Source: a virus. From it: a DNA stretch of 64,000 bases. Made by a program: the position numbers and the translations under genes. This document shows, in pieces, positions 60,760-64,000 of this stretch (its first letter is position 1; each line of letters starts with the position of its first letter). The notes under the pieces are model-generated. The model was not told the origin of the DNA, searched no databases, and was given only the letters and a program-made list of their open reading frames with translations. The stretch covers positions 69,875-133,874 of the IMG/VR virus record IMGVR_UViG_3300033571_019687; one strand, 5' to 3'.

Positions 60760-60886
60760 CTAGAATAGTTAAGATTAGATTTACATCTGGAAAATAAAAC
60801 TATCTAAAATTGTTTTTAAAAGGTTCAAGCCCTTTAACCGATAACTAATAGTTATCGTCGCTTAATCTATTCAATATTCTTTCTAG
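60760..60886 (+). ncRNA. TTACATC-family RNA copy A (Y-RNA-like)
   Basis: TTAGAT-TTACATC-[8 nt]-AAAACT-ATCTAA; T-arm-like AAAGG-TTCAAGC-CCTTT at 60819-60835; outer CTAGAA/TTCTAG. Confidence 0.6.
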
Positions 60887-61220: not shown

Positions 61221-61291
61221 CTTGAGATAGCTCATTGGTAGAGTGTCATATTTGGTTATGACTGGTAGGTGGTTCGATTCCATCTCTCAAG
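61221..61291 (+). tRNA. tRNA-Pro-like (TGG) with a 6-nt anticodon loop
   Basis: Good acceptor, D and T arms; TCATA-TTTGGT-TATGA. Confidence 0.6.
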
Positions 61292-61293
61292 GC

Positions 61294-61372: not shown

Positions 61373-61464
61373 ATGGTAAATATTGATTTACATCTGGAAA
61401 ATAAGGTTCGACTCCTTGTTTGCTACTATTAGGCAAATTATAATAATCAGTATAAAATTCCCAT
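61373..61464 (+). ncRNA. TTACATC-family RNA copy B (T-arm + closed acceptor-like stem cargo)
   Basis: ATATTGAT-TTACATC-[AAGG-TTCGACT-CCTT, GTTTGC..GCAAA]-AATA-ATCAGTAT. Confidence 0.7.
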
Positions 61465-61789: not shown

Positions 61790-61868
61790 TTGTGCATAGT
61801 CATTCAGTGATTTACATCAAGCCCTTTCTCGGTTTACCAAAAACAATCATTGGTTCATTCTTGCACAA
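61790..61868 (+). ncRNA. TTACATC-family RNA copy C
   Basis: CAGTGAT-TTACATC-[20 nt hairpin AAGCC-CTTTCTC-GGTTT]-AAAAACA-ATCATTG; outer TTGTGCA/TGCACAA. Confidence 0.75.
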
Positions 61869-61875
61869 AACTTAT

Positions 61876-62022
61876 TGATAACAAATTGTTGTTAAATAGT
61901 GATTTACATCCATTTCAAGGGGGAAACGTTGGTTCAAATCCAACCTGTGCTGTCACCAGCCGGTCGTCTAGCGGTAGGACACTCAAAAAAACAATCATTA
62001 TACCATTCTCATTTTGTTATTA
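61876..62022 (+). ncRNA. TTACATC-family RNA copy D carrying a circularly permuted tRNA-Glu-like domain
   Basis: TAGTGAT-TTACATC-[3' half TTC..T arm, linker, 5' half D arm]-AAAAACA-ATCATTA; outer TGATAACAAA/TTTGTTATTA. Confidence 0.78.
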
Positions 62023-62029
62023 AACTTAC

Positions 62030-62110
62030 TGATAATTATTGCAGTGAATTAAACATTTACATCTAATTTGGAAAGAAAAACAATGTTTATATAATTCTCG
62101 ATAATTATTA
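62030..62110 (+). ncRNA. TTACATC-family RNA copy E (minimal cargo)
   Basis: TAAACAT-TTACATC-[12 nt]-AAAAACA-ATGTTTA with compensatory stem changes. Confidence 0.75.
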
Positions 62111-62118
62111 AACTCATT

Positions 62119-62249
62119 AACTGTGGTAAATTTATGATTTACATCTAAATCAGCGTGTCATTGGTTCAAGTCCAATTAAGTTCAAAAGACTTATAGCTCA
62201 GACGGTAGAGCAGCCGACTAAAAACATGATCATAGAGTAATTCCCAGTT
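62119..62249 (+). ncRNA. TTACATC-family RNA copy F carrying a near-complete circularly permuted tRNA
   Basis: TTATGAT-TTACATC-[74 nt]-AAAAACATG-ATCATAG; outer AACTG/CAGTT. Confidence 0.8.
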
Positions 62250-62254
62250 TTTTT

Positions 62255-62311
62255 CGCTTAGTTGAATGCAATGAGAATATATCTCAGTAGGCTCGATTCC
62301 TACCTAAGCGA
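62255..62311 (+). ncRNA. 57-nt tRNA-like mini-RNA (acceptor + T arm, no D stem, no anticodon loop)
   Basis: CGCTTAG/CTAAGCG, GTAGG-CTCGATT-CCTAC, TGAGA-ATATA-TCTCA. Confidence 0.6.
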
Positions 62312-62356: not shown

Positions 62357-62430
62357 AGCGGGTGGTAGCAGTTGGTAGCTCGCAGGGCTCATAACCCTTG
62401 AGGTCGTCGGTTCAAGTCCGACCCCCGCCA
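62357..62430 (+). tRNA. Initiator-type tRNA-Met(CAT)
   Basis: 1:72 mismatch, GGG/CCC anticodon stem, loop CTCATAA. Confidence 0.85.
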
Positions 62431-63142: not shown

Positions 63143-63214
63143 GGTTTGTAGCTTAATGGTTAGAGCAGTTTGATTTTAATCAAATGATGGTAGGTTCGAG
63201 CCCTATCCAAACCA
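63143..63214 (+). tRNA. tRNA-Lys-like gene with a 6-nt anticodon loop and 6-bp acceptor
   Basis: TTTGA-TTTTAA-TCAAA; GGTTTG/CAAACC. Confidence 0.55.
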
Positions 63215-63225
63215 CCTTAGTTTAA

Positions 63226-63377: not shown

Positions 63378-63500
63378 GAAGAGGAGTTTGTGAATGATAT
63401 TATGATGTTTATGACATCATTATCAGGTCGTTTATATGGTTCACGCAGTGCAAAACGTAGGAAAAAAATAAAAGAAGATAAACAAAAAGAAAAATGTTAA
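63378..63500 (+). pseudogene. C-terminal remnant of an IS607-family serine recombinase TnpA
   Basis: EEEFVNDIMMFMTSLSGRLYGSRSAKRRK follows an in-frame TAA; catalytic N-terminus absent. Confidence 0.7.
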
Positions 63501-64000
63501 AGGGTGTTAAAATAAGGTTATATCCAAATAAAGAACAAGAAATTATATTTAATGGTTTGCTTGGTGGGTATCGCTTTGTTTATAATTCCGCTTTATCATA
63601 TAAAATAACCAAATACGAAACTGAAAGTAAATCAACTTCATTATCTGATACAAGCCATTATTTTCACCAAGATTTAAGAAATAACCATGACTGGTTAAAA
63701 GCACACAATACAAAAGTCATTAAGCAAGGTCTAAGAGATTTGGAAGTTGCATATAAAAATTTCTTTAAAAATGGTCGTGGGTTTCCTAAGTATAAGTCAA
63801 GGAAAGATGAACAACGTTGTCGTTTCCCTAAAGAAGCTGTGGCAAAAGACACATTTAAGAATGATATGTTAAACCTAACCAAAACTATTAATGGTATTAA
63901 TTTCTCGTGTTCTGAAAGAGATAGAAATTATCTATACAAAAATAAAGAGGGTATAAAGTCGGTTACCGTTATTAAAACTAAAACTGGTAAATATTTTGCA
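63494..64000 (+). mobile_element. tnpB: TnpB RNA-guided nuclease, N-terminal part, runs off the window
   Basis: Hand translation: MLKGVKIRLYPNKEQ...GGYRFVYNSAL...LEVAYKNFFKNGRGFPKYKSRK. Absent from the ORF track because no stop is reached. Confidence 0.88.

Follow-up and report, generated by a model that had tools for sequence, protein, structure and literature searches.

The locus analysed here raises the question of what a tRNA-like sequence is doing within a phage tRNA array when its 3′ half precedes its 5′ half, and whether such an arrangement represents a split tRNA gene awaiting re-joining or a non-coding RNA of another kind. The sequence, copy F in the following, lies in the last 64 kb (64,000 nt, positions 69,875 to 133,874; hereafter the window) of the IMG/VR virus record IMGVR_UViG_3300033571_019687, which comprises 133,874 bp at a CheckV completeness of 43%. 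We consider it probable that copy F is a stable non-coding Y RNA of the YrlA type, carrying a tRNA-mimic module and belonging to six paralogs in the phage tRNA array. The best reading therefore places it in a known class, as a divergent phage version of a YrlA-type Y RNA, and not among split tRNA genes. This assessment is built on the anatomy of the copy F sequence, its fold and its kinship with phage RNAs encoded next to Ro60 genes; the binding of copy F to a partner protein is putative.

The record has a G+C content of 29.5% and encodes the large subunit of ribonucleotide reductase, a DnaB-like helicase, a baseplate wedge subunit, an SbcC-like protein and ClpP. Its tRNA array extends from about 60.3 kb to the end of the window and holds 14 resident tRNAs, 13 of them called by ARAGORN and one detected through Rfam only; upstream of it are TTTG...TAnnTTTG repeats (family D1), which we take to fit the Bacteroidota promoter consensus. 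Past copy F the contig extends for another 1.75 kb. Within the array, the tRNA at 63143-63216 has a 6-nt anticodon loop, UUUUAA, for which ARAGORN reports the 2-nt anticodon “tt” (Rfam tRNA 39.9 bits), and the tRNA at 61221-61293 has an 8-nt loop with a 4-nt anticodon “ttgg” (44.3 bits), giving it the shape of a frameshift-suppressor tRNA. The stretch 62359-62430, scored by Rfam only (30.9 bits) and without an ARAGORN call, reads as a tRNA with a CAU anticodon, and its top BLAST matches are Prevotella Lak megaphages. A short element right behind the T-run of copy F (62255-62311) combines a perfect 7-bp acceptor-like stem (CGCTTAG/CTAAGCG) with a T arm and has neither a D arm nor an anticodon arm. 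Directly past the array begins a TnpB-like open reading frame (63494-64000) with an IS605 OrfB-type helix-turn-helix N-terminus (PF12323, 51.8 bits), which continues beyond the contig end.

The minimum free energy (MFE) fold of copy F (RNAfold, 62119-62249) is a cloverleaf, or four-way junction, standing on a two-part stem that is built from the flanks (Table 1). A first-pass annotation of this DNA had assigned the segment 62146-62219 element by element, and each element was recovered where it had been placed; the order that it described, the 3′ half ahead of the 5′ half, is confirmed as well, with the T arm, the closed acceptor-like hairpin and the D arm standing in permuted order. The stem formed by GCCGA and TCAGC contains a central C.A mismatch, and the nucleotides for tertiary contacts in tRNA are all present (U8, A14, G18 G19, the G15:C48 Levitt pair, G53-C61 and the T-loop UUC). 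The fold energy is unexceptional (z = -1.84), with 12 of 200 shuffled sequences folding equally well or better. With its loop limit of 8 nt, the terminator scan leaves the 3′ T-run of copy F outside its scoring.

Table 1. Coordinates, in the window, of the six paralogous units and of the elements of copy F.
Feature	Coordinates	Strand	Basis
Copy A, minimal form	60775..60807	+	six-copy comparison
Copy B, T arm and hairpin, no A-box	61382..61451	+	fold, six-copy comparison
Copy C, minimal form	61806..61851	+	fold, six-copy comparison
Copy D, second YrlA-type paralog, Glu-type D arm	61882..62018	+	R1 44.8 bits, E 1.5e-9
Copy E, minimal form	62051..62088	+	fold, six-copy comparison
Copy F, whole predicted RNA, outer stem to outer stem	62119..62249	+	MFE fold; Rfam YrlA 62132-62238; model R1 62123-62250
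F, outer stem 5′ strand (AACUG.GG), then UAAAUU	62119..62126	+	pairs with 62243-62249 in MFE fold
F, inner stem 5′ strand (UUUAUGAUU)	62131..62139	+	pairs with 62228-62236; 7/7 pairs, covarying across six copies
F, UACAUC junction motif, includes YrlA “YUAY”/UA	62140..62145	+	invariant, 6/6 copies; also in Ro60-adjacent phage Y RNAs; aligned to model's CUAc
F, start of module: TAAA; TCAGC; GTGTC	62146..62149; 62150..62154; 62155..62159	+	
F, junction stem 3′-type strand UCAGC, anticodon-stem analogue	62150..62154	+	4/5 pairs with GCCGA 62213-62217
F, T arm ATTGG/TTCAAGT/CCAAT	62160..62176	+	Rfam YrlA alignment, MFE fold
F, closed acceptor-like hairpin, 6 bp, 5-nt loop CAAAA	62177..62193	+	Rfam YrlA alignment, MFE fold
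F, acceptor region: TAAGTTC; A-rich linker; GACTTA; then TA	62177..62183; 62184..62187; 62188..62193; 62194..62195	+	
F, D arm GCTC/AGACGGTA/GAGC (RNA: GCUC AGACGGUA GAGC)	62196..62211	+	Rfam YrlA alignment, MFE fold
F, end of module: A; GCCGA; CT	62212; 62213..62217; 62218..62219	+	
F, junction stem 5′-type strand GCCGA	62213..62217	+	MFE fold
F, AAAAAC box, 3′ side of junction	62220..62225	+	common to copies C, D, E, F; AAAAC in G001, L308 homologs
F, inner stem 3′ strand	62228..62236	+	MFE fold
F, outer stem 3′ strand (CCCAGUU) into run of seven T, possible 3′ end	62243..62254	+	sequence, MFE fold

Features by which YrlA RNAs are recognised include binding by Ro60/Rsr, modification by TruB and DusA, and a location on the strand of a Ro60/TROVE gene at a distance of no more than 4 kb. 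By definition their two ends pair into a stem, which leads to a T arm, then to a closed acceptor-like stem-loop and lastly to a D arm (Chen et al., 2014; PMC4201824); a YrlA crystal structure is available (PDB 6cu1; bioRxiv 10.1101/312249), and Y RNAs have been reported from phages (PMC4201824; 10.1101/312249; PMC12135203). In an Rfam scan of a 1.65-kb region at a relaxed threshold, YrlA (RF02553) was the one non-tRNA match at copy F, spanning the full length of the model (positions 1-114) at 40.6 bits (E 4e-7), below the gathering cut-off of 69 bits. Neither ARAGORN nor Rfam finds a complete tRNA overlapping the region of copy F, and ARAGORN accepts the sequence once it is re-permuted. Taken together with an excess of the motif ATTTACATC, of which the window has 9 occurrences where 1.85 would be expected, 6 of the 9 in this array, these results place the match beyond chance.

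Beyond the score, copy F is like YrlA in the long stem made by pairing of its ends, where the MFE fold and the covariation of the inner stem agree, in the order of (V region), T arm, closed acceptor hairpin and D arm, in the conserved tertiary-contact nucleotides, in the UA or YUAY at the 5′ junction, and in the multiple paralogs per locus, some without the full tRNA module. For the 5′ junction, cmscan aligns the UUAC of UUUACAUC to CUAc of the YrlA model in the homologs, corresponding to what Chen et al. call “YUAY” and to the UA that forms the kink in the crystal structure, and copy F lies in the same register as its homologs under the covariance model R1 described below. It is unlike YrlA in its sub-cut-off score, in having one of the two stem segments shorter and no V hairpin, in lacking a Ro60 gene within reach, in its position inside a phage tRNA array, and in reading GGUAAAU in place of the box GNCGAAN0-1G (CGAA), the proposed Ro60 contact. 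This box is absent from all six window copies: copy F reads GUGGUAAAUUU where the locus L288 of phage G001 reads GUGGCGAAUGC, and the corresponding position is occupied by GGUAAAU in copies B and F, GUUAAAU in D, GUGAAUU in E and UAGAAUA in A. Judged by their sequences, these variants look like an AT-drifted form of the box, since the phage Ro60 locus L417 also uses AGAAUGC.

Copy F does not stand alone. The sequence UUUACAUC occurs in all six window units, a 9-nt motif is invariant among them, and the inner stems covary, with five different stem sequences that pair at 7/7 positions in five copies and at 6/7 in copy A. The full tRNA-like module is found in D and F, a T arm with a hairpin in B, and the minimal form in the remaining three. 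One could see in copy F and its siblings the decaying by-products of a rearranged tRNA array, or of an older Y-RNA locus, that are functionless now; the unremarkable fold energies of copies D, E and B, the degenerate Ro60 box and the three minimal copies would suit such a relic. We nevertheless regard this as improbable, given that the six copies keep the 9-nt motif unchanged beside stems that covary, that the tRNA tertiary-contact nucleotides of copy F are all intact, and that the full-length architecture is kept in both F and D.

Relatives were sought with a three-part DNA pattern (TTTACATC, T loop, AAAAAC). The scan was dominated by tRNA-Val(UAC) genes followed by a second tRNA, because UUUACAU is the anticodon loop of tRNA-Val(UAC), and besides these it returned true look-alikes at L288, a locus in the complete 423,825-bp phage G001, and at L308 and L368, two short metagenomic contigs. 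In the RNAs of G001 the YrlA build is complete: their outer stem contains GGCGAAUG or GACGAAUG (the GNCGAAN0-1G box), their inner stem ends in GGG-UUUACAUC, and beyond it come a V hairpin, the T arm, the acceptor hairpin, the D arm and finally AAAAC; they score 57.8 and 31.8 bits with Rfam YrlA. From six RNAs (one adjacent to the Ro60 gene of G001, two more from G001, two from L308 and one from L368), with no window sequence among them, the model R1 was trained. Its best match in the 64-kb window is copy F (51.1 bits, E 3.4e-11), followed by copy D, both over their full length; the matches after these reach at most 23.8 bits and are tRNA junctions. In an alignment of ten family members, 93.6% of cells pair; the figure drops to 65% after shuffling and to about 40% with the partners slid. 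Compensatory changes are seen at 26 of 32 pairs, although F and D belong to this alignment and its fitting to the model favours the structure.

Covariance scores of this kind should be interpreted with caution. Chen et al. had already warned that tandem tRNAs mimic the YrlA model (PMC4201824), and in phages related to ours R1 gives a tRNA-Gly/tRNA junction 45 bits; Rfam YrlA also scores tandem tRNA junctions. In the phage records G005 and G003 (L422/L423), a tRNA-Gly is followed after 2 nt by another tRNA, the pair reaching up to 45 bits with a YrlA-type model, and this value is a concrete false-positive level for YrlA-type covariance searches. Since tandem tRNAs attain it, the R1 score of copy F is supportive and not decisive, and evidence other than the score was sought. 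No close homolog of the exact scaffold of copy F was found in IMG/VR, where exact-motif scans (GATTTACATC...AAAAACA[AT]) gave chance or coding matches only, and phages related through a neighbouring 501-aa protein have no such RNA within 10 kb, their R1 matches being tandem tRNAs. An alignment of the minimal Y RNAs on the scaffold alone was too poor for modelling. Two other origins for the scaffold were considered and rejected: a decayed tRNA-Val, whose flanks do not close the loop and which does not account for RNAs beside Ro60 conserving UACAUC only, with varying 5′ neighbours; and IS200/IS605 PATE-like elements with a TTAC target (the TnpB gene lies at 63494), which were set aside in view of the RNA-type covariation of the stems and the association with Ro60.

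That association rests on loci in which a phage carries both components. The Ro60 ortholog of G001 is a protein of 621 aa (vWA_Ro60 51.8 bits, TROVE 27.4 bits, PDB entry 2nvo for Rsr at E 2e-10), with the Ro60 of phage phiLo and Rsr of D. radiodurans as its top PDB matches, and a YrlA-like RNA with GGG-UUUACAUC (50.4 bits) lies 178 nt upstream of its gene on the same strand. Y RNAs in G001 number at least five and fall into two loci about 20 kb apart (L415 4685-4900; L288 2233-2517), one directly upstream of Ro60 and the other among tRNAs, and all score under the Rfam YrlA cut-off (best 57.8 bits). Six further phage Ro60 loci, five of them distinct, were fetched with the G001 protein. R1 matches on the Ro60 strand were present in four of the five, and three (L416, L417, L420) contain, within about 2 kb of Ro60 at most and on the same strand, (C/A)GAAUGC, a short stem and then UACAUC; two RNAs of this type are found in G001 itself. 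Some of these Ro60-adjacent RNAs include the tRNA-like module (L416, R1 69.8 bits), and others are minimal hairpins with an internal loop. Just downstream of the Ro60 gene in L417 (6967-7990), four units stand in a row together with two more UACAUC sites (NGAAUGC, stem, YUACAUC), mostly without the tRNA-like module.

In the window, UACAUC stands directly 3′ of the 5′ strand of the inner stem in every copy, and this motif, shared with phage RNAs next to Ro60 genes, appears to us to be the decisive link, a better one than any score. Compared with the Ro60-associated Y RNAs of phages, namely those of mycobacteriophages (PMC4201824), Yrl1/Yrl2 of Thermus phage phiLo (PMC12135203) and the environmental jumbo-phage loci L415-L420, the window copies are alike in the UACAUC ending the 5′ strand of the inner stem, in their mixed arrays of 2-6 copies and in their occurrence in large phages. 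They are unlike them in that those RNAs have (C/A)GAAUGC and lie within at most about 2 kb of Ro60 on the same strand, and the window copies have neither in the sampled DNA. Because the same pattern is seen in Ro60-adjacent arrays, and because the divergent inner stems all pair, we read the six units as a Y-RNA family with copy F as its YrlA-type member. The first-pass annotation had offered a Y RNA as one of two possibilities, and in view of the YrlA topology and the UACAUC held in common with Y RNAs beside phage Ro60 genes this was right in kind.

Whether Ro60 is still the partner is a separate matter. No TROVE/Ro60 gene was found in the 134-kb record with the Pfam model or the G001 Ro60 protein (the record being 43% complete), none in twelve related, incomplete phage records, and no proteins are common to the flanks of the phage Ro60 loci and this record. 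Bacteroides thetaiotaomicron, searched as a control genome, has both a TROVE protein and RtcB, and the former makes a host-supplied partner conceivable. These observations bear on a scenario in which the RNA keeps the same fold and the scaffold, with its UACAUC/AAAAAC junction and AU-rich bulged stem, binds a different partner, so that the tRNA-like end acts as a Ro60-independent decoy titrating RNase P, an anticodon nuclease, a modification enzyme or some other host factor that targets tRNAs. The absence of the CGAA box from all six copies, the lack of a Ro60 gene in the record and its twelve relatives, and the position among tRNAs instead of beside Ro60 are what such a decoy would lead one to expect. 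We judge it unlikely all the same, with UACAUC being common to RNAs directly beside phage Ro60 genes, with more than half of the genome outside the record, and with a TROVE protein in B. thetaiotaomicron, whose phylum matches the promoter type of the array.

The second possibility raised at the outset was that of a permuted cassette which circularises to yield a tRNA. Both possibilities are already published for YrlA: the Discussion of 10.1101/312249 treats the likeness of YrlA to permuted tRNAs, their possible processing and an origin from dimeric tRNA transcripts. Applied to copy F, cuts at UACAU/C and directly before AAAAAC, ligation (e.g., by the RtcB of the host), RNase P cleavage and 3′ trimming at the acceptor loop, and CCA addition would yield a tRNA(CUA), with a back-splice junction at which GCCGACU is joined to CUAAAUCAGC. 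The order of 3′ half, linker and 5′ half does lie in one predicted transcript, and in Mycobacterium smegmatis YrlA is a substrate of RNase P and acquires CCA (PMC4201824). The register in question provides copy F with a 7-nt loop, CUCUAAA, including U33 and A37, on a stem of five positions, which ARAGORN calls as tRNA(cta). In copy D the same register gives a CUCCC/GGGGG stem with the loop AUUUCAA, which alongside the CUA loop of copy F is an eye-catching coincidence.

As a control on register, the modules of eight family members were circularised and submitted to ARAGORN in 49 cut combinations each. Most homologs are called as tRNA in most registers (G001_b in 48, L308_2 in 44), copy F in 26 with an anticodon that shifts with the register, L368, the closest structural match to F, in 3, and D in none; in members with a V hairpin, ARAGORN uses that hairpin as the anticodon arm at any cut. 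Being callable as a tRNA thus reflects a tRNA-like core and not a specific processing register, and the anticodon CTA proposed by the first-pass annotation depends on the cut that is chosen. The same annotation had named the anticodon strands of homologs as a test; L368 and L308_1 cannot rebuild an anticodon arm in the register of F, which leaves maturation unsupported, and a canonical re-joined tRNA is not conserved among the homologs. Copy F would moreover contain A1.C72 and C29.A41 mismatches and a linker of 2-3 nt.

The genomic setting argues in the same direction. The standard code covers 94.4% of the record, coverage hardly rises when TAG is read as sense, and 4 of 93 long frames end in TAG, so that there is no sign of TAG recoding and no coding need for a TAG-reading product; RtcB, Rnl1 and Rnl2 were not found in the record. 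With the permuted tRNA genes of Cyanidioschyzon merolae, some green algae and Thermofilum pendens (10.1101/312249), copy F has in common that the 3′ half comes first, that the acceptor is closed by a linker and that a helix joins the ends. It differs from them in its bacterial host, in the lack of a re-joinable anticodon arm conserved in homologs, and in its junction, which in the MFE fold is a 10-nt by 10-nt internal loop and not a bulge-helix-bulge; the splicing endonuclease is unreported in bacteria (10.1101/312249). On these grounds the cassette proposal is not upheld, and we find it extremely improbable that copy F (and possibly D too) serves as a genuine permuted precursor, which a host ligase such as RtcB turns into a working tRNA(CUA). 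If it were true, bacterial viruses would have their first permuted tRNA gene, and Y-RNA scaffolds would gain a processing role.

The YrlA-type module in copy F also appears to be older than had been supposed. Re-permuted modules are at most 67% (F) and 61% (D) identical to the 14 resident tRNAs. In the window, in G001 and in L308 alike, a unit with a Glu-type D arm (UCGUCUARYGGUAGGAC) is accompanied by another whose D arm is of the generic UAGCUCAG..GGUAGAGC type. This pairing of D-arm types is more in keeping with a pair of old paralogous lineages than with captures made recently and independently; repeated derivation of the Glu-type units from tRNA-Glu is possible. The suggestion that copy F was recently built from a tRNA does not agree with its low identity to the resident tRNAs, nor with the recurrence of the D-arm pairing in two unrelated metagenomic sources. 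It was likewise said to keep more of the anticodon arm than YrlA does; the Rfam consensus has a 4-pair stem at this place, and L368 has five perfect pairs.

For the YrlA-type Y RNA that we favour, we suggest the following scenario. Copy F would be transcribed together with the tRNAs of the array, and its 5′ and 3′ flanks would pair into a long bulged stem, presenting an L-shaped tRNA look-alike (T arm, closed acceptor hairpin and D arm) by way of a short stem and a junction with UACAUC on one side and AAAAAC on the other. As characterised Y RNAs do, copy F may dock the ring of Ro60/Rsr through its long stem; the protein could be supplied by the unsampled 57% of the phage genome or by a Bacteroidota host. 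The tRNA-like end might then engage a tRNA-binding or RNA-decay factor, for example PNPase, and an engagement of this kind could redirect the turnover or repair of host RNA in infection.

These results extend the world of Ro60 and Y RNAs to a large AT-rich phage with Bacteroidota-type promoters. The six Y-like RNAs of this phage alternate with tRNAs and have an apparently drifted form of the canonical Ro60-binding box, and the UACAUC at the junction of stem and module provides a simple marker for phage Y RNAs that are missed by the Rfam threshold. The near-intact anticodon stem of copy F makes it a good test case for the published origin of YrlA from dimeric tRNA transcripts. If the window RNAs still bind Ro60, the recognition of Y RNAs by this protein would have to be redefined; if they do not, they would be tRNA mimics with a new partner. 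Either outcome bears on how phages manipulate the tRNA and RNA-decay machinery of their hosts.
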